A stretch of DNA of 64,000 nucleotides. Origin: Escherichia phage AV124. The notes under the pieces are model-generated. The model worked only from the letters and a program-made list of their open reading frames with translations, did not search any database and was not told the origin of the DNA. Positions within the stretch are counted from its first letter, which is position 1. Every line of letters starts with the position of its first letter. Made by a program: the position numbers and the translations under genes. The DNA lies in sequence record OR352954. One strand, 5' to 3'. Below are positions 1-25,424 of this stretch, one piece after another.

Positions 1-473
1 CCTTCTCATATGACCCTGAGACAGGTTTGTTTACTTGTATCAATCCTCTCGCTCGTCGTCATTTTGGTAAGGTTGCAGGCACAAAAAGGAAAGATGGGTA
101 TATACGCCTCGGTGTTAAGGTAAGCGGCAAGCTGAAAATGTTTCTCGCGCATAGGGTTGCCTGGGCTTTTTATCACGGTGTGTGGCCTGATGGCCTTATT
201 GACCATAAAGACTGGGACAGACAAAATAATAAAATAGACAATCTCAGGGTTGTTGACAAAAGCACAAATAATTATTATTATTCCCCTTGGAAAGGGAAGT
301 CACAGACAGGTTACAGGGGTGTTAGGATAGATAAAAGGAGAAATCCTCCCAGATATCAAGCTATTTTCTGCGACACTCATCTTGGGATGTTCTCTACAGC
401 AGAAGAGGCATATGCTTGCTATCAAAAGTATGTTATGAAGACACAGGAGATTATCGCAGATGCTGAAATATAA
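1..473 (+). CDS. HNH homing endonuclease with AP2-like C-terminal motif; 5' partial (start lies upstream of window)
   Basis: Reading frame open from window edge; 'HRVAWAFYHG...DHKDWDRQNNKIDNLR' HNH-type motif, 'GYRGV' AP2-like motif. Confidence 0.55.
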   Translation, partial: FSYDPETGLFTCINPLARRHFGKVAGTKRKDGYIRLGVKVSGKLKMFLAHRVAWAFYHGVWPDGLIDHKDWDRQNNKIDNLRVVDKSTNNYYYSPWKGKSQTGYRGVRIDKRRNPPRYQAIFCDTHLGMFSTAEEAYACYQKYVMKTQEIIADAEI

Positions 474-951
474 AGTTGGTGATTTGATTAAAGCTATTCA
501 AGATGGTGAAGTAAATGTTTTTGGTCATGGTTGTAATTGCTTTGTGACTATGGGTAGCGGGATCGCCCCGTTGATCAAAGAAGCATTCCCTAAGATGTAC
601 GCTGCCGACCTGAAAACTGAGAAGGGCGACAAGACCAAGCTGGGAACCTGTACAATGGCCTTTTTGAATGATGGGTCTCTCGTAGGATTTAATCTGTACT
701 CACAGTACGGTTATAATCGCCGCAAACAGGGTCTCAGGGACCTTGACTACAATGCCCTGTATGATTCAATGGTTGAAATGAAAAAGCTCTTACAGAGCTA
801 TACAGACGGCCCTATGGACACCTATCGAATCGGGTTCCCTAAACTAGGTGCTGGGCTTGCAGGGGGTGACTGGAATGTCATCGAAGCAATGATCAAATCA
901 ATCTTCTTTGATTGTGATGTAACTGTGTACATTCTGCCGGAGAAAAAGTGA
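460..951 (+). CDS. macro-domain (ADP-ribose binding/processing) protein
   Basis: 'GDLIKAIQDGEVNVFGHGCNCFVTMGSGIA' and 'IGFPKLGAGLAGG' resemble macro-domain Gly-rich loops (cf. YmdB/MacroD). Confidence 0.55.
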   Translation: MLKYKVGDLIKAIQDGEVNVFGHGCNCFVTMGSGIAPLIKEAFPKMYAADLKTEKGDKTKLGTCTMAFLNDGSLVGFNLYSQYGYNRRKQGLRDLDYNALYDSMVEMKKLLQSYTDGPMDTYRIGFPKLGAGLAGGDWNVIEAMIKSIFFDCDVTVYILPEKK

Positions 952-9610: not shown

Positions 9611-9905
9611 CTGGCTCTTTGCCAAAGAGGATGACACCACAGAAAATGAAGTTCGGGTATTCGACTTCACAGAGCAAGGGCCTGGTCATGACATCACTAT
9701 GCGAGTAATCAATGATGGTGAATATGCAGAGGCAGTGGTTGCCCTGAAACTTGCGGATCTGCCGCCTGCGGTTGGTGACTTCATTGTCGTAGTTTTAGAT
9801 GGTGTCCACAATACTTTTGTGGTAGAAACAGTGGAAGGCGTGAGCCTGACAGTTACTAAATTGACCCTGACTCGTTATGAAGGTGCAGAAGATGAAACAT
9901 CGTGA
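9591..9905 (+). CDS. hypothetical protein
   Basis: ATG 9591 inside track ORF 9567..9905. Confidence 0.3.
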   Translation: MFKRLINWLFAKEDDTTENEVRVFDFTEQGPGHDITMRVINDGEYAEAVVALKLADLPPAVGDFIVVVLDGVHNTFVVETVEGVSLTVTKLTLTRYEGAEDETS

Positions 9906-10374
9906 AAATATTTGTAAGCTTATTGATGATTTGAAGCGCATCGCAAGACAAGCAACACCAGGTAAGTGGTGGATAGATTCACATGGCCATGCTATGGTTG
10001 CATTTTCAACGGAAGATGCTGGCATGGAAACAGTGTTTGTGACAGACGGGAATATGGGTCCGGTTGTGCGCCATGAGAACACAGGTAATCTCTCGGCTTG
10101 GCGCAATGATATGGATGCAACATACATTGCGACTGCCTGCCCTCAGAATGTGCTGGCAGTTCTGGAATATCTAAGTTCTGGTGCTAACGCGTGGAATACC
10201 ATAAGCACTTATATGGAAACTCGCCTGCATGGTGATGCAGCCGCTTTACGTAATGATGTAAGCCGGAAGTTGTTTGATGACGGTTGTCATAGTGCAGCAA
10301 TCCATGCAATTCAGTTTATCGAGGCACTGATTGACCAGAATATTGAATTAAAGGCCGAACTGGAGTCTAAATGA
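9892..10374 (+). CDS. hypothetical protein (Ead/Ea22-like motifs)
   Basis: 'ATPGKWW' and 'CPQNVLAVLEYL' resemble motifs common in small lambdoid early proteins. Confidence 0.3.
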   Translation: MKHRENICKLIDDLKRIARQATPGKWWIDSHGHAMVAFSTEDAGMETVFVTDGNMGPVVRHENTGNLSAWRNDMDATYIATACPQNVLAVLEYLSSGANAWNTISTYMETRLHGDAAALRNDVSRKLFDDGCHSAAIHAIQFIEALIDQNIELKAELESK

Positions 10375-13933: not shown

Positions 13934-16306
13934 ATTAAAGGTCTGTTTATACTGGATAACGAGGCCGATGGCCTGTTAGACGAAGTAACTAAGTACCATT
14001 GTACTTTGCTGAAAGAATTCGGAGTCAACAACTGGAACCTGTTTTTAGACCCCGCACACCCTGAATATGAAAGCGCTGTAGCCTTTGCCAGGAGCAAGAA
14101 GGATGCTAATCTTACAATTCGTTCATACGACGAGCTGGAAAGCTTCCTGAAGACTTGTAGAGCCATTGCGTGTCACAACCTGTTTGGTTATGACCTGCGC
14201 CTGTGGAAGAAGTTATCGGGCATTGAATATGATATGTTCAAAGACCCGAAGTGCATGGGGACGATTGGGGATACACAGGTAAATCTCTACGACACCCTCT
14301 CTATGAGCCGTGTGCTTTATCCTGACCGTCCATTACCTAACGGTTGCCCTGACTCTGTTCTTAACCCGGTAACCGGGAAGCGAGACCGTGTAGGTCCTCA
14401 TGGCCTGTTGGCCTGGGGCTACCGCGTAGCAAACAAGAAAGTTCAGATCGATGACTGGCGTAACCAACCCTTGTGGGAATACGTTAATCGTGTCTGGGAA
14501 GACGTTTTAATCAACGAGTTAGTATGGCAATCCCTGATCGATGAATCTACAGGTGCTCGCTGGCCTGATGACAAGCAGTTCATGTACAAAGATAAACCGG
14601 AAGGGATGCGGCAGATCAACTGGAAGAACGCGCTACGCCGCCGTATGTTGACTGATTACCTGATGATTGAGCAAGAAATTCAGGGTGTTCCATTCAATAA
14701 GCATGAAGCTGAAAAGCTGAGAGACCGTATTGATGTAATGATGAAAGAGATTGAGGAAGAAGTAGAACCTCAACTCCCGCTCAAAGAGATGACGAAGTCT
14801 CAACAGCCAAAATTCCCTGCTAATCCTTTTGATGGTGCAGGAAGAATTTCCCATCACGGGTGGAATTGGTTAGAATACAAGCTGGGATATCCAGTTAATC
14901 GTGAAGCGCTGGAATTCAAAGGTCCACCGAAGACGGCGTTTAAAGGTAACGGTGATGTAAGTGCAGCAGGGGAAAGATACTGTATCCAGAATGGTGTTGA
15001 AGACCCGGCAGCGATGCCAGACTTCATTAGAAGCCAGATAAAGAAAGAGAATACCCTTGTCCCATTGCCACCAGACCTAATGGAAAAGGCAATTGCCGAT
15101 CTTCGTGCTGGAAAGATGCCAGACCTGATGGTTCCGATGAAGATCTCGAACCAGGACGACATCAAGAAGTACCTGATCCGCGATGCGGGATGGAAACCAA
15201 CGCTCTGGCGTGTTAAAGATGTGACGAAAGACCAGTTCAAAAAGACCCGCGATGATGCGGAGGTTGATGGTCTGGTGCGTAAGTACATCGAAGAACTTGG
15301 AGAGTCCGAGTATAAATCTCTGATTCTTGAGCACTTAAATAATAGTGACGCAAAGTTCAATATCTCGGAAAACAAGTTCGACCATCGTCATGGTTCTGAT
15401 CGTGTTTACGAGGAGGTCTTCAAGAAGTTCCGACGCAAAGCTCGTCAACTGCCGACTTCACCACAGTTGAAGGATAACTTTGGCAAGCTGTGTCCTAACC
15501 TTGAAGTTATCGATGTTCACTTGGCTAAACAGATTGTTAAGTGGCTGTCATTACGTAACCGTCGTTCTGTTCTCGACCCTATTGACGAGGATAAAAACGA
15601 TACAGGGCTGTTGAATCATCCTCGCCTGGCGATTGATGGAAAACTTCCAGCTCGTTTCTCTGGTATCACTAACACCGGGCGTTGTAAGCACACCATTTGT
15701 GCAAACATGCCTAAGCCAGATCCTAAGGTGTTGTTGGGTAAAGAGATGCGTGGTCTCTGGGGTGTGACCGATGAATATTACCAGGTCGGTATCGATGGTT
15801 CTAACCTCGAAGGTATGATCGCGGCATGGGGTGCATATCAGTTCGATGGTGGTGAATACCTCCGTATCATGGAAAGTGGAGATGCCCACGCACGAAACGC
15901 CGAGGCATACACCAAAGCTTCTGGTACTCTGGTAACGCGTAACGGTGGTAAAGGGGTAACCTACGGCATCATGTATGGTGCTCAGGCAGCTAAGATTGCA
16001 GCAATGCTTCACATTTCCCTTGACAAGGCACAGGCGGTAATCGATGCTTTCTGGGATAGTAACTTTGGTTTGAAAGGTCGTAAGGAATGGCTTGAAAACT
16101 TCTGGGAAGCAACGGGTAAACGTTATATCCCTGGTCTCGATGGTCGTAAGATTTGGACCCGTTCTAAGCACTCTCTTCTGAATGCTTTCCAGCAAAACGG
16201 TGGTGCATCTCTATTCGATCTGGTTGGTATCCTGCTTCACTGGGAACTGATCAAACGTGGCTGGTATGATGATGACGTTCGTCGCCTGATTTACTACCAT
16301 AAATAA
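13934..16306 (+). CDS. DNA polymerase, family A, T7 gene 5-like; N-terminal segment (3'-5' exo + motifs A and B), ends just before motif C
   Basis: Exo I 'FILDNEADGLLDEVTKYHC' (cf. T7 'IVSDIEANALLESVTKFHC'), 'GPHGLLAWGYR', motif A 'GIDGSNLEG', motif B 'KGVTYGIMYGAQ'; no ATG/GTG/TTG between upstream TGA (13919) and Exo I, so start set at ATT 13934 after AGGAGG. Confidence 0.75.
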   Translation: MKGLFILDNEADGLLDEVTKYHCTLLKEFGVNNWNLFLDPAHPEYESAVAFARSKKDANLTIRSYDELESFLKTCRAIACHNLFGYDLRLWKKLSGIEYDMFKDPKCMGTIGDTQVNLYDTLSMSRVLYPDRPLPNGCPDSVLNPVTGKRDRVGPHGLLAWGYRVANKKVQIDDWRNQPLWEYVNRVWEDVLINELVWQSLIDESTGARWPDDKQFMYKDKPEGMRQINWKNALRRRMLTDYLMIEQEIQGVPFNKHEAEKLRDRIDVMMKEIEEEVEPQLPLKEMTKSQQPKFPANPFDGAGRISHHGWNWLEYKLGYPVNREALEFKGPPKTAFKGNGDVSAAGERYCIQNGVEDPAAMPDFIRSQIKKENTLVPLPPDLMEKAIADLRAGKMPDLMVPMKISNQDDIKKYLIRDAGWKPTLWRVKDVTKDQFKKTRDDAEVDGLVRKYIEELGESEYKSLILEHLNNSDAKFNISENKFDHRHGSDRVYEEVFKKFRRKARQLPTSPQLKDNFGKLCPNLEVIDVHLAKQIVKWLSLRNRRSVLDPIDEDKNDTGLLNHPRLAIDGKLPARFSGITNTGRCKHTICANMPKPDPKVLLGKEMRGLWGVTDEYYQVGIDGSNLEGMIAAWGAYQFDGGEYLRIMESGDAHARNAEAYTKASGTLVTRNGGKGVTYGIMYGAQAAKIAAMLHISLDKAQAVIDAFWDSNFGLKGRKEWLENFWEATGKRYIPGLDGRKIWTRSKHSLLNAFQQNGGASLFDLVGILLHWELIKRGWYDDDVRRLIYYHK

Positions 16307-17275
16307 CATTGTGGCTTTGTGAGGTAACTCACATCGAATAACTCCTTTAATTGCTGGGAGGCTAAGGTTGATATTCACTCGATAATAGAGTAAAATACAA
16401 CTATGTTAATCAGCAGCGAAGAGGATCAATGAAAAGTGTAAACTACCACGGATATGTGGTTTACGAAGACGGAACCATTATCGGAAGGCGCGGGAAACCG
16501 ATGCAAAAGGTAGATAATGGGAGGGGCTACCTAATTGTAAGTCTCTACCTTAATAAAAGAACAACGACAAAAGCTGTGCATGTTTTAGTGGCTGAGTGTT
16601 TCGTTCCCAACCCGGATAACCTCCCAGAGGTTGACCACAAGGATGGTGATAAGACCAACAACCACTACACCAACCTCCGCTGGGTAACAAGAGGTAAGAA
16701 CATAGAACATTGCTACACGTTGGAAGGTAGAAGTGCAACAGGTATTGCCAATGCAAACAGTAAGTTGTCAGAGGGAGAAGTGGAGAAAATCTGCTACCTC
16801 TTGCAGGAAGGCTTTAGTCAAGCTGCCATCCGAGACATGGGCTACCCATACGGAACAGTTAGGGCCATCAAGCAGAGACGACAATGGCTGCATATATCAT
16901 CTTCGTATCATTGGTCTTAACGTTCAGAGGCCAGCCGAAAGGCGTAGACGAGCGAGTGCCGTCGAAATGGGGAGCATCCTGAAAAGGATGGTGATATGGT
17001 CCGATCCTACGTGAAAACGTATGGCAACACGTAATGGTGTGGGCGAGATTAACGACCTCGCTAAACTTTTGGATGAATACCAGCTCCAGGTTCCTAAGAA
17101 ATACCTGAAGAAGTGGGAGTTCGACACCCTGGAAGAGGCAACAGCTTTCGTCAAAGAATGGGAAGCAAAAGGCCGGGTATTTGACGGACATGAATGGAGA
17201 AAGGCCGTCAAAGATGACAACGGTGATAAAGTCAAGGATGCGGAAGGCAATACAGTCTACGAAGGTATTTTCGGG
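16301..17275 (+). mobile_element. insertion interrupting the DNA polymerase gene; candidate group I intron carrying an HNH endonuclease ORF (alternative: gene-splitting homing cassette)
   Basis: Polymerase frame stops at 16304-16306 where motif C is expected; conserved C-terminus resumes downstream; possible P1 pairing CCAU(16297-16300)/GUGG(16311-16314); in-frame G-terminated 3' site at 17275. Confidence 0.3.
16429..16920 (+). CDS. HNH homing endonuclease
   Basis: 'VHVLVAECFV...VDHKDGDKTNNHYTNLRWVTRGKN' HNH_3-type motif; C-terminal HTH-like segment. Confidence 0.75.
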   Translation: MKSVNYHGYVVYEDGTIIGRRGKPMQKVDNGRGYLIVSLYLNKRTTTKAVHVLVAECFVPNPDNLPEVDHKDGDKTNNHYTNLRWVTRGKNIEHCYTLEGRSATGIANANSKLSEGEVEKICYLLQEGFSQAAIRDMGYPYGTVRAIKQRRQWLHISSSYHWS

Positions 17276-17419
17276 GACGATGGTAAAATCCACATCCAGT
17301 ATTGCCCTGTTGGTGAAATGGTCGTAAGATGTGTAGAGAAGGCCGCTCGTATCATGGGCAGTCCTGTACATATCACAGGGGCATATCTTACGGGCGCCAA
17401 TTGGGCGCAATGTCATTGA
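17021..17419 (+). CDS. DNA polymerase C-terminal segment (motif C region to C-terminal His)
   Basis: 'IQYCPVGEMVVRCVEKAARIM...ANWAQCH*' matches T7 DNAP C-terminus '...IQVGC..EEIAQVV...NWAICH*'; first ~85 codons lack polymerase similarity. Confidence 0.6.
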   Translation: MATRNGVGEINDLAKLLDEYQLQVPKKYLKKWEFDTLEEATAFVKEWEAKGRVFDGHEWRKAVKDDNGDKVKDAEGNTVYEGIFGDDGKIHIQYCPVGEMVVRCVEKAARIMGSPVHITGAYLTGANWAQCH

Positions 17420-17437
17420 TATATAAGGATATTTTAT

Positions 17438-18073
17438 ATGGAATTATGGAAAGACATCCCCTCTACGGAGGGGAGATACCAAGTAAGTAATTATGGAAGA
17501 ATAAAAAGGCAACGGTATTCTCGCATAAACAGCAATCAAGCAGCAAGTTGGGAGCAAGTATATGAAACAAAGATATTAAAGCCTTCAAAGGACACACACG
17601 GTTACCTACAAGCTTGTTACCTTGTGGAAGGAGAGAGGACTATAGCCCTGGTCCATAGGCTTGTTGCAGAAGCCTTCCTTGCACCGCCAAGTCAAGAGTT
17701 GATAGATGAATGTATGAAGGCTGGTCACAAAGTGGTTCTTGTCAACCACAAGGATGGAAACCCACTTAACAACCATGTTGACAACCTTGAGTGGTGTACT
17801 CCTTCTTACAACAATGAGTATAGTCCCCAAGATTATTCAAATAGGTCTGGGGATAACTGTAAACATGCGGTTCTTAAAGAATCTGATGTTGACAAAATAC
17901 TGGAACTACGTGGTAAAATGAGTCAGCAGGCCATCGCGGATATGTTCGATGTGAAACAGATCACTATCAGCAACATTTTCACCGGAAGGTCTTGGTCTTC
18001 TTATACCGGAATACCTCGCAAAGAGCGTAACAAAGGAAAACGTGCAGCTAAGACCAAACTGTTATCACAATAG
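17438..18073 (+). CDS. HNH homing endonuclease (NUMOD4-like N-terminus)
   Basis: 'WKDIP..EGRYQVSNYGRIK' then 'VHRLVAEAFL...VNHKDGNPLNNHVDNLEW'. Confidence 0.7.
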   Translation: MELWKDIPSTEGRYQVSNYGRIKRQRYSRINSNQAASWEQVYETKILKPSKDTHGYLQACYLVEGERTIALVHRLVAEAFLAPPSQELIDECMKAGHKVVLVNHKDGNPLNNHVDNLEWCTPSYNNEYSPQDYSNRSGDNCKHAVLKESDVDKILELRGKMSQQAIADMFDVKQITISNIFTGRSWSSYTGIPRKERNKGKRAAKTKLLSQ

Positions 18074-18309: not shown

Positions 18310-18318
18310 AAAATAGTG

Positions 18319-18347
18319 TTGACACCCGTTTCGAATAGCATTAAAGT
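18319..18347 (+). promoter_or_regulatory. sigma70-like promoter candidate
   Basis: TTGACA (18319-18324), 17-nt spacer, TAAAGT (18342-18347), A/T-rich upstream. Confidence 0.35.
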
Positions 18348-18405
18348 GTATCACATGAAGACGAGAGATCTCGCTTCAAAACAACCTCACAAACAGGAGA
18401 ACGAA

Positions 18406-20436
18406 ATGACCGCAAAATATGAAACCGTACCTTATGCTGACTTCGTAAAAGCTCTGAAAGCTCAGTTCGCTGTCATGCAAGCGCTGGGTGCGCTTTACAC
18501 GGTCGATGTACCGAAAGATGAACTGTACGACCTGTACCTTGATTCTTTCCCGGAAGGCACCAACCTGATGTATAAAGAGCGCCGTGAATACGACTGCAAC
18601 TGCTGCAAGAGCTACATCCGTACTCTGGGCCGCGTAGTTGCTATTCACAACGGCAAGCTGGTATCTATTTGGGACGTTAAAGTTGGTGGTTATTACCAAG
18701 TAGTTGCCGATGCGATGAAAGCGCGTGTTGAAAGCTCCGAGATCCGCGATCGCTTCTTCCACTTCGAAGGCCGCGTTGGTACTGAGAGCAACGTAGTTCT
18801 CCTGGAAAATGGGAAAACCAAAACCTGGACCCACTTCCATCAGGCCCTGCCTCGCGAACTGGTTAAACGTGGTGAAGATATCCCTTCTGCCCTGGGTGAG
18901 TACCGTGACAACGCAACTGTGCTGGCACGTTCTCTGAAAGATATCGATATGGACTCTGCCGAAACGGTAATGGACCTGATCAACCAAGGCTCTCTGTACC
19001 GTGGTGATGAGAAAAAGCACATTGTTGCTGCCTTTATTAAGGCGAAACGTGCATACGACAAAACGCCGGAAGACCAGCGAATGAACTTCTGCTGGAAACA
19101 AAGTGAAACGCTGGGTAGACTGGGTCGCTTCCGTAATGATGTCATCGGAACACTGATGAGCGATCTGGCAGAAGGTGTTGATCTTGAAGCCGCAGTGAAG
19201 TCCTTTGAAGACAAAGTCTCAGGGACCAACTACAAACGTACTACTGCTCTGGTAACTCCGGGCATGATCAAGGCAGCACAAGAGAAAGTTGAAGCCCTCG
19301 GCTTGACTGAATCTCTGGCACGTCGCTTTGCGGTGACCTCTGACCTGACGATCAACAACGTGTTGTTTGCTGACCGTTCTGCAAAGGCCCAAATGAACGT
19401 ATTCGAGCAACTGGCAGCGTCAACCAAAAACGCGCCTAAGTCACTGTCGAAAGTGGAAGAGATCAGCATTGAGGATTTCATCAACAACGTTCTACCGAAA
19501 GCGGACACTATCGAAGCGCTGGTTGAAGGTCGTCTGACACCGAACCTGATGAGCTTGGTTGCCCCGGCAAACGCAGGTGCTCCTAACCTGTTCAAATGGG
19601 ATAACGGCTTCTCCTGGTCGTATAATGGCGAAGTAACTGACTCCATCAAGGAGCGTGTGAAAGCCGCTGGCGGCAGCGTGACTGGTGACCTGCGTGTTTC
19701 GTTGTCTTGGTACAACAGTGATGACCTCGACCTGCACGTATTCGAGCCTGGTGGCGGTCAAATTTACTTCGGTAACAAACGTGGTCGCTCAACGGGTACG
19801 CTGGATGTGGATATGAATGCCTATGGCAAGTCAGACGCACACCATCCGGTTGAGAACGTTACGTGGGAAAATGAGCGTAATATCACGGAAGGTGTTTACA
19901 AGGTTGTTGTTAACAACTATAATAAGCGCATGACTGATCGCGTTGGCTTCGAAGTCCAGATGGAATACAAAGGCCAAGTGTTCAACTTCGCATACCCGCA
20001 AGCTTTGGGTAATAGCAAGAGCCAGACCGTTGTAACATTTAAGTATTCTCGTGCGAAAGGTGTTGAAATTGTAGACAGCATCGGGCATACTAAGCAATCT
20101 AAAGAAGTGTGGGGCGTCTCTACCGAGACCTTCCAGAAAGTTTCTCTGGTGCTAAATTCTCCTAACTTCTGGGATGGTCAGACCAAAGGTAACAAACACT
20201 ACTTCTTTATGCTGGAAGGTTGCATTAACCCTGACGATACTCGTGGCTTCTACAATGAGTATCTGCGTGACGAGCTGCATGAGCATCGTAAAGTGTTCGA
20301 AGTGTTGGGTTCCAAGCTCAAAGCTGAACACTCCGCTGATCAACTGAGCGGCCTGGGCTTCTCGTCTACCCAGCGTAATGAGTTGGTTGTGAAGGTGACT
20401 GGTTCTTTCAACCGCACCCTGAAGATTAAGTTCTAA
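18406..20436 (+). CDS. large hypothetical protein (676 aa), unknown family; E. coli-optimal codon usage
   Basis: ATG 18406 after AGGAGA SD; strong CTG/CGT/GGT/AAA codon bias unlike neighbouring phage genes; no P-loop or recognisable catalytic motif found. Confidence 0.6.
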   Translation: MTAKYETVPYADFVKALKAQFAVMQALGALYTVDVPKDELYDLYLDSFPEGTNLMYKERREYDCNCCKSYIRTLGRVVAIHNGKLVSIWDVKVGGYYQVVADAMKARVESSEIRDRFFHFEGRVGTESNVVLLENGKTKTWTHFHQALPRELVKRGEDIPSALGEYRDNATVLARSLKDIDMDSAETVMDLINQGSLYRGDEKKHIVAAFIKAKRAYDKTPEDQRMNFCWKQSETLGRLGRFRNDVIGTLMSDLAEGVDLEAAVKSFEDKVSGTNYKRTTALVTPGMIKAAQEKVEALGLTESLARRFAVTSDLTINNVLFADRSAKAQMNVFEQLAASTKNAPKSLSKVEEISIEDFINNVLPKADTIEALVEGRLTPNLMSLVAPANAGAPNLFKWDNGFSWSYNGEVTDSIKERVKAAGGSVTGDLRVSLSWYNSDDLDLHVFEPGGGQIYFGNKRGRSTGTLDVDMNAYGKSDAHHPVENVTWENERNITEGVYKVVVNNYNKRMTDRVGFEVQMEYKGQVFNFAYPQALGNSKSQTVVTFKYSRAKGVEIVDSIGHTKQSKEVWGVSTETFQKVSLVLNSPNFWDGQTKGNKHYFFMLEGCINPDDTRGFYNEYLRDELHEHRKVFEVLGSKLKAEHSADQLSGLGFSSTQRNELVVKVTGSFNRTLKIKF

Positions 20437-20892: not shown

Positions 20893-20913
20893 AAGGCCCT
20901 TCGGGGCCTTTTT
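20893..20913 (+). terminator. intrinsic terminator
   Basis: AAGGCCC-TTCG-GGGCCTT hairpin followed by TTTTT. Confidence 0.6.
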
Positions 20914-21287: not shown

Positions 21288-21355
21288 TTCAAAAGCCTCT
21301 TGACTTCATGGTTGAGGGGCTTTATTGTTATGGAAGCTAAATAACCTGGGGGGTG

Positions 21356-21725: not shown

Positions 21726-21932
21726 ATGCGTGGATTTATGCCTTTGGTGAAACCTTTAGTAATCGTTGGAATAATTGTGGTAGTGGCGCTTTTTATTGTT
21801 GACACAGCAGATACCGTCACTCATAATTGTAAGCCTAACGGTGAGCAACGCCTTGCAAACAGTGCGGATGGCATTGTCGTTGAGAACAAACTGATCTGCG
21901 ACGGTGGTCGCGTGAAGTGGTCTCGCTACTAA
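21726..21932 (+). CDS. small membrane-anchored protein
   Basis: ORF track; 'LVKPLVIVGIIVVVALFIV' TM segment. Confidence 0.35.
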   Translation: MRGFMPLVKPLVIVGIIVVVALFIVDTADTVTHNCKPNGEQRLANSADGIVVENKLICDGGRVKWSRY

Positions 21933-21967: not shown

Positions 21968-23056
21968 ATGACGATTACTCGCGGCCTTATCTTCGGGAAG
22001 TTTGCACCCCTGACCAACGGGCATATTGAATTCATTCGCCAGGCGGCTTCGCAGGTTAGTGCTCTGTACCTGTTCCTGTCATATGATCAGAAATTCGTTG
22101 ATGCACAACCAGAATGGATTCGTCCAAAGCTGGGGCTTGCTGATCGTTATCGTGACCTGCTGGATGTTATTGCCGATGAGGGACTTGACAACGTGAAGGT
22201 AGACTACGTTGATGAGTCGAATATCCCAGGATACCCTGAAGGCAGTGCTGCCTATGCAAAACTGATCCGTGAAAAGCAACCGTTCGTTAAGTACGATTTT
22301 GCTTTCTCTTCTGAGCCGGAGTATGAGTCTTACTTCAGTGAGTTCTTCCCTGAAGCGAAGCATGTAGTTATCGACGCAGAACGTAAAGCTGTTCCTATCT
22401 CAGCCACGATGATCCGTAATGATCCGTACAACAACTTCTACAACCTAGCGTGGCCTGCACGTAAGCGCTTCATGAAGAAGGTTGCCATCATTGGTGTTGA
22501 GAGTACGGGCAAGACAACCCTGACAAAACATCTGGCGCATACCTTCGGTGCTGGTTGGATTCCTGAGATCGGACGGCTTATCTGTGAGCGTGAATATCAC
22601 TCCAGTGAGTTCGCAATGTCTCGTGAAGACTACCTGCGTATCGCTATGGAGCACCGCCTGAAGGAGATGGAGTTGGCTGGTTGGGGTGATCGTGGGGTTA
22701 TGTTCTCTGACACCACAAACCTGATCACACACTTCTCTGGTGTTTGTGCTGATAAGATCGACTACGCAGACCTGTTGTTCCGGACACTAAGCCGTGAAGA
22801 GAGCTACAACTTCTATGACCTGTTCCTGCTCCTCACACCAGAGGTTCCGTGGGTTGCTGATCCTCTTCGCTTGCAGGATACACCAGAGAAACGTAAAGAA
22901 ACCCATTCTTTGCTTGACACAATGATCAGAGCATCTTACGATACAAGCAAGGTGGTGGTTATCTCCGGCAGTGATTACGAAGAGCGTACTCAGAGAGCTG
23001 AAGAAGCTGTCCGTAAATTGCTGAATATCAAAGGAGAACAAGATGGATCAAACTAA
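21968..23056 (+). CDS. nadR: bifunctional NMN adenylyltransferase / ribosylnicotinamide kinase, NadR-like (no N-terminal HTH domain)
   Basis: NMNAT motif 'GLIFGKFAPLTNGHIEFI' (cf. NadR 'FGKF.PLH.GH'); kinase P-loop 'VAIIGVESTGKTTL'. Confidence 0.8.
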   Translation: MTITRGLIFGKFAPLTNGHIEFIRQAASQVSALYLFLSYDQKFVDAQPEWIRPKLGLADRYRDLLDVIADEGLDNVKVDYVDESNIPGYPEGSAAYAKLIREKQPFVKYDFAFSSEPEYESYFSEFFPEAKHVVIDAERKAVPISATMIRNDPYNNFYNLAWPARKRFMKKVAIIGVESTGKTTLTKHLAHTFGAGWIPEIGRLICEREYHSSEFAMSREDYLRIAMEHRLKEMELAGWGDRGVMFSDTTNLITHFSGVCADKIDYADLLFRTLSREESYNFYDLFLLLTPEVPWVADPLRLQDTPEKRKETHSLLDTMIRASYDTSKVVVISGSDYEERTQRAEEAVRKLLNIKGEQDGSN

Positions 23057-23468
23057 TCTGGCAATTCTTCAGTTCTTGAAAGAGGATTTGGAGAGAACCG
23101 AGGCATGGACTTTCCACTATGTTATTGAGGAGGCCTTAGACCTCAGTCCGATGGTGGTGGACATCTCCCTCACGCAACTGGAGCAGGGTAAGATGATCAC
23201 TCGCTGCCTGTGTGGTTGCAATGGCATTATGATTGCCCCTGGTGGGTATGAGGTGCTTCCAAAGCCTGAAAAGAAAGAGCAGATTCTGGTCTGGAAAACA
23301 GCACAAGGAGATGTTGTCAGGTTGACTCATATGGCAGATGATCATCTCCGTAACGCGATGGTATGGCTTCTGGAGCAGCCCTATTTGAGCGAAGAATACG
23401 AAGGTGTTGGTATAACGACATGGCTCAAGGAGATGTCAATTGAACTGCACAGGAGATTTTCACTATAA
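23043..23468 (+). CDS. hypothetical protein (possible winged-helix N-terminus)
   Basis: ORF track, 141 aa. Confidence 0.35.
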   Translation: MDQTNLAILQFLKEDLERTEAWTFHYVIEEALDLSPMVVDISLTQLEQGKMITRCLCGCNGIMIAPGGYEVLPKPEKKEQILVWKTAQGDVVRLTHMADDHLRNAMVWLLEQPYLSEEYEGVGITTWLKEMSIELHRRFSL

Positions 23469-23662
23469 TGGCGATCAAAGTAATCTCCGAAGGTACTCCG
23501 TTTACGGCAACGTGTAAGAGTTGCAGGTCTGTGGTTGAATACAATTACACGGATACCTATGTATATTCCTACACTGTTGCTCGTGGAATGCGGGTAGGTC
23601 ATGGTGCGTACCGCTGCATCACCTGTCCTGTGTGCTCATCAAGGATCAGGCATAATGGCTAA
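23468..23662 (+). CDS. small zinc-ribbon protein
   Basis: 'CKSCRS' ... 'CITCPVC' Cys pairs. Confidence 0.35.
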   Translation: MAIKVISEGTPFTATCKSCRSVVEYNYTDTYVYSYTVARGMRVGHGAYRCITCPVCSSRIRHNG

Positions 23663-24008
23663 GGTGCTCAACTTCTACCACATTGGTAAAGTGATCCCTG
23701 AAAATGCCGAATACATGGGGCGAGCAATGCCCCATCTAGGCCTGAAGCAATCTAAATTCGCTAACCCATATAAGTTGTCGAAGGATGAGCCTCGTGGAGC
23801 CACCATTGAGCGCTATCGCGTGTGGTTGTGGCAACAGATCCGTTCTGGGAAAATTACTATTCAAGATCTTCTTGACTTGGATGGTAAAGACCTTGTATGC
23901 TTCTGTAAACAGCCGAACAAAGAGGTGGCATGTCATTGTGATGTGATACTTGCGGCAATCGAATGGGCAAAACAGAGGAAGACAAATGGCAATTCATGCA
24001 AAAAGTAA
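23655..24008 (+). CDS. DUF4326-family protein
   Basis: 'YMGRAMP...SKFANPYKL...IERYRVWL...LDGKDLVCFCK...CHCDVIL' matches my recollection of the DUF4326 pattern. Confidence 0.5.
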   Translation: MAKVLNFYHIGKVIPENAEYMGRAMPHLGLKQSKFANPYKLSKDEPRGATIERYRVWLWQQIRSGKITIQDLLDLDGKDLVCFCKQPNKEVACHCDVILAAIEWAKQRKTNGNSCKK

Positions 24009-24222
24009 TGGTCTGCTGATCGGCGGTAAGATCATCGAGGAGACACTGACAGGCTGGGTTTTCCAGGCAATGGATAACAAAGGTACTAATTTTGTGTTCA
24101 AGTCAGATGAGAAGAACCAAGTTTTTGACGGACCGAATGCTGTTGACGAAGCAATGGCTTGGCAAACTAAAGTCCGGGCAGAAATGAAAAATAAAAAGAG
24201 AAAGGGGCGCAAAAATGGCTAA
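23986..24222 (+). CDS. hypothetical protein
   Basis: ATG 23986 with GAGGA SD inside track ORF 23950..24222. Confidence 0.3.
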   Translation: MAIHAKSNGLLIGGKIIEETLTGWVFQAMDNKGTNFVFKSDEKNQVFDGPNAVDEAMAWQTKVRAEMKNKKRKGRKNG

Positions 24223-24475
24223 AGATACATGGGAAGTATTTCAGGATGACGACGAAATAAAGGTCATTGTCTCAGGCTCTCTTGAGGTAGGTGCCGGGTG
24301 GCGATCTTACAGCGACGTGTGTTCAGAGATTAATAACCTTGATGATGCAAAACTCATTGCCGCAGCACCTGAATTGCTTGACGCGGTTCTGGATCTGAAG
24401 TATAAGTTATACGGTAACGGCGCAGCAAGTCCTAAAATCGAGGCACTGTTGAAACGCTTGGAGAGAATTACATGA
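24215..24475 (+). CDS. hypothetical protein
   Basis: ORF track; 'LIAAAPELLDAV' motif common in small phage early proteins. Confidence 0.35.
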   Translation: MAKDTWEVFQDDDEIKVIVSGSLEVGAGWRSYSDVCSEINNLDDAKLIAAAPELLDAVLDLKYKLYGNGAASPKIEALLKRLERIT

Positions 24476-24702
24476 ACAAATACTACTTCGCCTTCGGAAT
24501 GAACCAAGAAACGAAGGATGGTATGTCTCTCGGTAATTACTACGTCTGCATCGAAGCCAAACACCATTACGATGCCAGATTTGAGATGTTCGATGCTCGT
24601 GGCAGTTCTTGGTCTTTTTGCTACACAGAAGAAGAATTTGCTGGACAACCAGAAAAATATGGATTAAAGTCTATTTCGTTAGACGAAGTTCGTATCCGAT
24701 AA
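24472..24702 (+). CDS. hypothetical protein
   Basis: ORF track, 76 aa. Confidence 0.35.
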   Translation: MNKYYFAFGMNQETKDGMSLGNYYVCIEAKHHYDARFEMFDARGSSWSFCYTEEEFAGQPEKYGLKSISLDEVRIR

Positions 24703-24722
24703 ACAATAGGAGAAAAGATTAC

Positions 24723-25424
24723 ATGATGAATCTATACGTAAAAACAACCTGGACAGACTTCTATGGTTGGACAAAACTCGAATACCTTTGGCTTCTAATC
24801 TGTTCTGCATCCATTGCAACGGTCTCTATCGTTACAGGTGGTACGGTGGTGGAGTTTATTTCCTCCGTCACAGGCATCGTCGGTGCGATTCTGGTTGCGA
24901 AAGGTAAACTTTCCAGCTACTATTGGGGCTTCATTGCCACGGTTCTGTATGCATATATCTCTTTCACGTACAAGTTGTACGGTGAGACGATTATGTACAC
25001 CCTGTTGTTCACCCCCATGCAGGTCATTGGCGGGGTGATCTGGGCGCGTAAGTTAACCGTCTCTGCGGATGGTGAGCGTGCGGATGTCATAAAGAAATAT
25101 CTGACCACAAAACAGCGCTGGATTGTTGGTATCGGGACATTGGTGACGATCGGATTATACGCCGAGTTCGTTAGCCTATTGAAAGGAAGTATGCCGGGTC
25201 TAGATTCTGCGACAGCAATCCTGTCAGTTCTAGCAACCTACCTGATGATGGTTCGTTATGCAGAACAATGGCTGATTTGGCTACTGGTGAACACTGTTGC
25301 AATTGTTATGTGGGTACAAGCTACGATTCATCATCAAGGAGCTGGTTCTGCAATTTTGGCTATGTGGGTCACATTCTGGCTCAACTCTCTTTATGGTTGG
25401 TATAAGTGGAGAAAGAATGGCTAG
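24723..25424 (+). CDS. pnuC: nicotinamide riboside transporter PnuC-like
   Basis: ATG 24723 after AGGAG; polytopic membrane protein ~233 aa with PnuC-like C-terminal 'WLNSLYGWYKW'. Confidence 0.7.
   Translation: MMNLYVKTTWTDFYGWTKLEYLWLLICSASIATVSIVTGGTVVEFISSVTGIVGAILVAKGKLSSYYWGFIATVLYAYISFTYKLYGETIMYTLLFTPMQVIGGVIWARKLTVSADGERADVIKKYLTTKQRWIVGIGTLVTIGLYAEFVSLLKGSMPGLDSATAILSVLATYLMMVRYAEQWLIWLLVNTVAIVMWVQATIHHQGAGSAILAMWVTFWLNSLYGWYKWRKNG

Follow-up and report, generated by a model that had tools for sequence, protein, structure and literature searches.

A stretch of 64,000 nt of the genome of Escherichia phage AV124 (sequence record OR352954), called the window below, carries two + strand genes, nadR (21968..23056) and pnuC (24723..25424), that are predicted to form a route from external nicotinamide riboside (NR) to NAD+. 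The biochemical reading, in which NR would be imported, phosphorylated to nicotinamide mononucleotide (NMN) and adenylylated to NAD+, appears sound. The transporter PnuC and a bifunctional NadR without its helix-turn-helix (HTH) domain would be the functional anchors of a run of eight early-region genes, and the most likely selective role of these genes, which we consider probable, is the maintenance of NAD+ under NAD+-depleting conditions, including those imposed by abortive-infection defences.

The 362 aa NadR-type protein has an N-terminal NMN adenylyltransferase (NMNAT) and a C-terminal P-loop ribosylnicotinamide kinase (RNK), and its gene is preceded by the ribosome-binding site (RBS) GAGGAG. 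Both halves are matched by Pfam profiles, CTP_transf_like at residues 8–151 (E 3e-6; 27.9 bits, cut-off 21) and AAA_28 at residues 171–340 (E 1.7e-22). The protein falls in PHROG 3462, 'nicotinamide-nucleotide adenylyltransferase' (E 6e-140), and matches four NadR-type structures in the PDB (E values from 3.5e-59 to 6.6e-26), i.e., 9x6f (3.5e-59), E. coli 8x7f (6e-31), H. influenzae 1lw7 (5e-27) and 6gye. Its closest structural relative, PDB 9x6f/9x6h, is a recently solved 357 aa 'nicotinamide-nucleotide adenylyltransferase' with 35% identity, far nearer to the phage protein than NadR of either E. coli or H. influenzae.

Catalytic motifs were examined in an alignment of 11 sequences, made up of the window NadR, nine other phage-type homologues and E. 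coli NadR, with 29–71% identity to the window protein. The motifs GKFxPLxxGH, ISxxxxR, Walker A GxESxGK(T/S)T, the Walker-B Asp and WVxDxxR are invariant. The conserved residues of the nucleotidyltransferase half are G10, K11, F12, P14, L15, G18 and H19, together with I144, S145 and R150; those of the kinase half, including the lid region, are G176, E178, S179, G181, K182 and T184, D248, and W295, V296, D298 and R301 (the roles of the kinase motifs are taken from descriptions of the L. lactis and H. influenzae enzymes). The alignment with E. coli NadR (30% identity, E 2e-36) begins at E. coli residue 65, the position at which the phage protein itself begins, and the N-terminal HTH repressor domain is missing. 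The nine other phage-type homologues likewise all lack the corresponding extension of about 60 residues in E. coli NadR. The phage enzyme is best placed in a phage-type branch that has diverged within the family, and not among the typical bacterial orthologues; its homology is not in doubt.

The last gene of the run, preceded by the RBS AGGAGA, specifies a PnuC nicotinamide riboside transporter of 233 aa. It matches PF04973 (E 3e-36; 125.4 bits, cut-off 27.3), scores 110.5 bits against the TIGR01528 equivalog (cut-off 42.45), and is 35% identical over 219 aa to 4qtn, the structure of N. mucosa PnuC (E 7e-40). Residues 183–190, WLIWLLVN, correspond to the Pnu-family ligand-binding motif of transmembrane helix (TM) 6, defined as WxxW(x)3D/N (PMC5749112), and W106 and W229, near the ends of the two halves of the protein, pair with tryptophans in 4qtn and may represent the TM3 and TM7 gate positions. 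Specificity for NR would be consistent with the equivalog score, the similarity to the NR-bound N. mucosa structure and the pairing with an NR kinase, all of which support it indirectly.

Both genes are conserved by selection. Between the window and two relatives, dN/dS was 0.05–0.08 for nadR and 0.08–0.13 for pnuC, and 0.03–0.10 for a third gene of the run, which encodes a DUF4326 protein (23655..24008, + strand; 117 aa, function unknown). Values spanning 0.03–0.13 signify strong purifying selection and thus mark all three genes as functional and constrained. A preliminary description of this DNA had placed three ORFs here, all on the + strand, and named them NadR, DUF4326 and PnuC; profile searches gave clear matches for each, far beyond chance, and the NMNAT and P-loop motifs it quoted lie in invariant columns of the alignment. 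It had also drawn all three genes into a single route from NR to NAD+. That proposal stands for PnuC and the bifunctional NadR, which suffice on paper, and fails for DUF4326, which is not a conserved member.

Pairing of nadR with pnuC recurs well beyond the close relatives of AV124. The two genes follow one another directly in Aeromonas phage AhSzq-1, a 161 kb phage contig, a T5-like Salmonella phage, the jumbo phage GAP32 and one bacterial contig. Directly behind the NadR homologue of Vibrio phage ICP1 comes an unannotated 234 aa ORF. The pairing is conserved across unrelated phage lineages and the grouping is meaningful. PnuC acts by facilitated diffusion, and the vitamin is held back in the cell once the NadR kinase has phosphorylated it (PMC7221760, PMC5749112); the repeated combination of transporter and kinase fits such metabolic trapping. 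Among 50,697 phage records, 731 contain NadR homologues; of the matches listed, most are annotated as such. In relatives of AV124, the GenBank labels of the three genes are 'NadR type nicotinamide-nucleotide adenylyltransferase', 'DUF4326 domain-containing protein' and 'PnuC-like nicotinamide mononucleotide transporter'.

The window belongs to the genome of a Vequintavirinae (Mydovirus-like) phage of the Klebsiella type. Its first 25 kb show about 95% nucleotide identity to Klebsiella Mydovirus-type phages over up to 91% of the length, and at the protein level its DNA polymerase segment is 99.5% identical to the counterpart in Klebsiella phage KpS11. This lineage carries other genes of NAD+ metabolism. 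KpS11 (PP988283.1) has a pair of the NAD+ reconstitution pathway 1 (NARP1) type at 70718-73265, consisting of a Namat-like protein of 561 aa and an Adps-like protein of 266 aa, and about 5 kb past it are genes for a Sir2-like 'NAD-dependent protein deacetylase', a DNA ligase and a nucleotide pyrophosphohydrolase. The KpS11 Adps is 99.6% identical to that of phage KB57; KB57 and Mydo, both close relatives, are listed in the NARP1 tables of Osterman et al. 2024. In the relatives, about 53 kb separate nadR from the NARP1 pair downstream of it, which falls past the end of the window, and tblastn searches with the KpS11 Adps-like and Namat-like proteins found no homologue within the 64 kb of AV124, where these genes would lie outside the window. 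Nor does the window contain a Nampt homologue, or the Sir2-like, ligase and pyrophosphohydrolase genes, which in KpS11 are also located beyond the window end. In this lineage NadR-PnuC would be an addition to NARP1, one layer of a larger NAD+ toolkit and not a substitute or an alternative.

A further candidate component lies within the window. The gene at 460-951 (+ strand) encodes a 163 aa Macro-domain protein that resembles the Poa1p phosphatase and matches PHROG 335, 'phosphatase' (E 4e-61). It scores 21.5 bits against Pfam Macro, just below the cut-off of 22, and matches PDB chains named 'ADP-ribose 1''-phosphate phosphatase' (E 3e-6) as well as BT1257 (E 4e-7). Yeast Poa1p, for which ADP-ribose 1''-phosphate phosphatase activity is reported, is the closest characterised homologue of Adpp, a Macro phosphatase recently shown to extend the reach of NARP1 to the aRES defence (bioRxiv 10.64898/2026.01.28.702374). 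The gene stands next to an HNH gene and about 900 bp upstream of a gene for RNA ligase, outside any NARP1 operon, and the Macro gene of this lineage does not occur in the supplementary tables of the aRES paper. The protein could serve in RNA repair, in NAD+ rescue or in both.

A course of events can be proposed as follows. Early in infection, PnuC would enter the host inner membrane and external NR would diffuse into the cell. The C-terminal kinase of NadR would convert it to NMN, which would be trapped in the cytoplasm, and the N-terminal adenylyltransferase would then join NMN and ATP to give NAD+. An enzyme devoid of the repressor domain would supply extra NAD+-making capacity without the transcriptional repression known from enterobacterial NadR. 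The net effect would be that the NAD+ level of the infected cell is upheld from a source independent of NAD+ breakdown products, while the NARP1 of the lineage would, alongside NadR-PnuC, rebuild NAD+ from ADP-ribose (ADPR) together with nicotinamide. It is because the lineage also has NARP1 that maintenance of NAD+ under depletion is taken as the most likely role. A part in counter-defence is plausible and draws indirect support from the NAD+-centred set of genes in this lineage. We infer the enzymatic activities, the substrate, the timing of expression and any anti-defence effect from sequence.

Several points weigh against this reading. NadR scores below the NCBIfam equivalog cut-offs of TIGR01526 (181.6 versus 341.15 bits) and NF005988 (166.4 versus 201), and its exact substrate preference is therefore not guaranteed. 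The two genes are 1.67 kb apart in the window, compared to a two-gene operon elsewhere. The carriage of NARP1 is seen in relatives, and in AV124 the genes would fall outside the 64 kb examined. The route needs external NR, which is not made by NADase defences, and its benefit therefore depends on the environment. A search of the literature, with most subscription journals outside its reach, found no experiment on a phage NadR-PnuC pair. Signals for transcription add little. A sigma-70-like promoter match (TTGACA-17-CATAAT, 11/12) at 21799..21827 on the + strand, about 140 bp upstream of nadR, is weak evidence: the scan returned 27 sites where shuffling predicts 19.5 ± 5, and single sites are therefore not significant and provide weak context. 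The two strongest + strand terminator-like hairpins, at 20893-20910 and 21292-21323, are both upstream of nadR, and the + strand hairpin scan found none of comparable strength within 21968-25424. Neither the promoter nor the terminator calls have statistical meaning.

The strongest competing explanation is general auxiliary metabolism, in which the module would top up NAD+ for the high demand of the phage itself, whether or not the host carries an NAD+-depleting defence. Sources of such demand would be the NAD+-dependent ligase of the host in replication, redox cofactors for nucleotide synthesis and a phage Sir2-like enzyme, and relatives encode, besides the Sir2-like deacetylase, ribonucleotide reductase, glutaredoxin and thymidylate synthase. 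The phages with NadR among the records listed are mostly large (about 110–360 kb) and virulent, with big sets of metabolic genes; the jumbo-phage literature treats such genes as a means of independent NAD+ synthesis (PMC11662467); and the source of the substrate, as noted above, fits this explanation too. On the other hand, the same lineage has NARP1, a family for which an anti-defence function is established by experiment, and a Poa1p-like Macro phosphatase is present in the window as well; taken together, the two point to NAD+ depletion as a specific selective pressure on this lineage. Auxiliary metabolism is a real possibility that we nevertheless hold to be less likely than NAD+ maintenance under depletion, and it does not exclude counter-defence.

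NAD+ maintenance can also be taken further. NadR-PnuC might be a working third route of NAD+ reconstitution, independent of the chemistry of the defence, and together with NARP1, the Macro phosphatase and possibly DUF4326 it might make up a layered rescue kit in Mydovirus-like phages, with NR from lysed neighbours as its substrate. Since that substrate is imported NR, the pair would still work where aRES yields ADPR-1''-phosphate and the breakdown products are unusable. This extended proposal is tentative, and we think it rather unlikely to hold in full.

Whether the DUF4326 protein is a working third component, processing a phosphorylated breakdown product of NAD+ or ADP-ribose within one extended three-gene pathway, was considered separately. 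The protein matches PF14216 (E 2.7e-18; 66.9 bits, cut-off 25) and has a Cys/His core in which, among 62 sequences, N37 and C82 are invariant and C84, C93 and H94 are at least 90% conserved. Iyer et al. 2022 predict that DUF4326 is rhodanese-phosphatase-like and acts on the terminal phosphates of ADP-ribose derivatives (PMC9503650). Of the ten longest homologues, six are fused to NADAR (one of the six also to Macro) and two to SLOG, and it is only through these domain fusions that a tie to NAD+/ADP-ribose biology is suggested. In Mydovirus and Seunavirus relatives, as in the window, the gene is found between nadR and pnuC, and in phage KP2025 it is not between them but about 1 kb downstream of pnuC.

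Gene distribution tells against such a pathway. At six nadR loci outside Mydovirus and Seunavirus no DUF4326 gene was found nearby: in AhSzq-1, the 161 kb phage contig and the bacterial contig, none lies closer than 10 kb to nadR-pnuC, and in ICP1, Epseptimavirus (T5-like) and GAP32 none is annotated within 4–6 kb of nadR. Conversely, homologues in phages Antha and ABPH49 (62–70% identical) and in phiEa104 (43%) have no annotated nadR or pnuC in their vicinity, and DUF4326 is present in 572 phage records of many kinds. As a conserved partner of the module, DUF4326 is unsupported by these six nadR loci and by the three DUF4326 loci without an annotated nadR. A three-gene pathway is accordingly improbable; DUF4326 is better regarded as a separable neighbour and not part of the core, and it and the five other small ORFs of the run are lineage-specific insertions that are not needed for the route.

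It is slightly less probable still that NadR mainly recycles internal NMN, released by the turnover of NAD+-dependent ligase or by pyrophosphatase cleavage of NAD+, using its adenylyltransferase, and that import through PnuC is secondary. The NMNAT motifs are intact, as this would require, and E. coli processes NMN by NadR or PncC (Osterman et al. 2024). However, the kinase motifs are conserved equally, and pnuC, which would be needless for pure recycling, has been kept beside nadR in several phage lineages and under purifying selection.

Recent capture of nadR and pnuC from an enterobacterium, which the preliminary description had favoured on the grounds of host-like codon usage, is very improbable: GC at third codon positions (0.49–0.52) does exceed the phage mean of 0.437 by about one standard deviation, but identity to the E. 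coli proteins is only 30% for NadR and 25% for PnuC, the HTH domain is missing, and the alignment of PnuC with the N. mucosa protein starts at residue 13, the local one with E. coli PnuC, which is reported to be without the extra N-terminal helix (PMC5749112), only at residue 43. The codon usage itself is phage-like, and the third-position GC, too, was judged to be so. The three genes have a log-likelihood ratio of +0.10 per codon, at the 23rd to 25th percentile of the other ORFs of the window, and all 11 E. coli reference genes used as a control score negative. Among the matches listed, the closest NadR homologues with long contigs are nearly all on phage-sized contigs, and the bacterial contig with adjacent nadR (HTH-less, its product 41% identical to the phage NadR) and pnuC has a GC content of 40%. 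Capture from an enterobacterial host was ruled out on the codon usage, the low identities, the missing HTH domain and the phage origin of the nearest relatives.

The run at 21968-25424 is tightly packed and consists of eight genes on the same strand, with nadR the first and pnuC the last. Successive genes overlap by 14, 1, 8, 23, 8 and 4 nt, and a gap of 20 nt precedes pnuC. Apart from DUF4326, its five small ORFs, all on the + strand, match PHROGs of unknown function only. The first (23043..23468; 141 aa), the start of which overlaps the nadR stop by 14 nt, corresponds to phrog_22435 (E 2e-64) and has no Pfam match. It is followed by a Cys-rich ORF of 64 aa (23468..23662; phrog_2834, E 1e-11), possibly a zinc ribbon, with sub-threshold Pfam matches to Zn_Ribbon_TF and CpXC. 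Downstream of DUF4326 are ORFs of 78 aa (23986..24222; phrog_8602, E 3e-30), with its ATG at 23986 and an overlap of 23 nt with the DUF4326 end, of 86 aa (24215..24475; phrog_1273, E 3.5e-14) and of 76 aa (24472..24702; phrog_13997, E 4e-41).

The run belongs to the replication-gene arm of the + strand, with helicases, a primase/helicase and a split family-A polymerase upstream, and, downstream at about 27.5–28.7 kb, a protein annotated as single-stranded DNA-binding in KpS11. The polymerase gene region (14006-18073, +) is broken up by HNH homing-endonuclease genes; it includes a family-A DNA polymerase ORF (14006-16306), an HNH_3 ORF (16429-16920) and a NUMOD4+HNH_3 ORF (17438-18073), all on the + strand, and in relatives the polymerase is annotated as two or three pieces. 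Between this region and nadR, ending about 1.5 kb upstream of the latter, is a gene (18316-20436, +) for a conserved phage protein of 706 aa (phrog_1735, E 8e-298; no Pfam match), annotated in KpS11 as 'DUF2135 domain-containing protein'. Elsewhere, a gene for cREC_REC (cyclic-phosphate processing receiver) is located immediately upstream of nadR in AhSzq-1 (9660-10001 of the stretch examined), and cREC_REC is annotated in KpS11 (kps11_109) near the Sir2-like and RNA ligase genes. A recurring link of RNA-repair or cyclic-phosphate genes to NAD+ genes is possible.

Bacterial immunity to phages commonly ends in the depletion of NAD+, and two pathways by which phages restore it have been demonstrated. 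If NadR-PnuC acts as proposed, it would be a third route, one that draws on an imported vitamin precursor and not on breakdown products, that could beat defences NARP1 cannot, and the effect of which would depend on environmental nutrients. The central idea, that phage NadR-PnuC acts against NAD+-depleting immunity, has already been put forward. Osterman et al. 2024 (Discussion, Fig. S3B) state that phage NadR usually sits with PnuC and name the operon as one more pathway of NAD+ reconstitution, yet to be tested, and Iyer, Burroughs and Aravind 2022 place phage NadR among the enzymes that reconstitute NAD+ against NADase effectors (PMC9503650). The gene pair is annotated in hundreds of phage genomes, GenBank relatives of AV124 included, and the claim that PnuC and NadR represent a distinct solution was thus anticipated in print. 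Since the idea is published and the genes are annotated, the window adds no new kind of system. Its additions are modest, namely the coexistence of NadR-PnuC with NARP1 and a Macro phosphatase in one lineage, which is convenient for asking whether these are redundant or complementary, and the separable nature of DUF4326.

Compared to the published phage operon (T5-like Epseptimavirus and GAP32, with an unannotated homologue in ICP1), the AV124 genes belong to the same families, are on the same strand, occur in a virulent phage and have the same proposed role; by homology the window is a member of this group. The arrangement differs in that six small ORFs (1.67 kb, including DUF4326) separate the two genes here and in other Vequintavirinae, whereas the nadR and pnuC coding regions of the T5-like phage, GAP32 and AhSzq-1 abut or overlap. 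Bacterial salvage by PnuC and a bifunctional NadR, of the H. influenzae and L. lactis type, shares the NMNAT and RNK order, the catalytic motifs, the Pnu binding motif and the pairing of transporter and kinase; the system described here differs in being encoded by a lytic phage, in having only 27–35% identity to the characterised enzymes, and in a NadR that scores below equivalog level. The trifunctional NadR of enterobacteria (E. coli, Salmonella) is homologous in its NMNAT and RNK parts and has the HTH domain that the phage protein lacks, and in E. coli pnuC sits with nadA and not with nadR.

NARP1 (Adps and Namat), which close relatives carry, leads to the same end product and the same proposed benefit. 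Its substrates, ADPR and nicotinamide, are products of NADases, whereas that of NadR-PnuC would be imported NR. With NARP2 and the KVP40 NadV-NatV system (Nampt and Nmnat-Nudix), the last step is held in common, the adenylylation of NMN by a nucleotidyltransferase of the HIGH superfamily. NARP2 makes its NMN from nicotinamide and phosphoribosyl pyrophosphate by Nampt and has no transporter, while NadR-PnuC would make it from NR by a kinase; the NMNAT of NARP2 is of the NadM type and fused to Nudix, and that of the phage described here is of the NadR type and fused to a P-loop kinase (PMC9503650).

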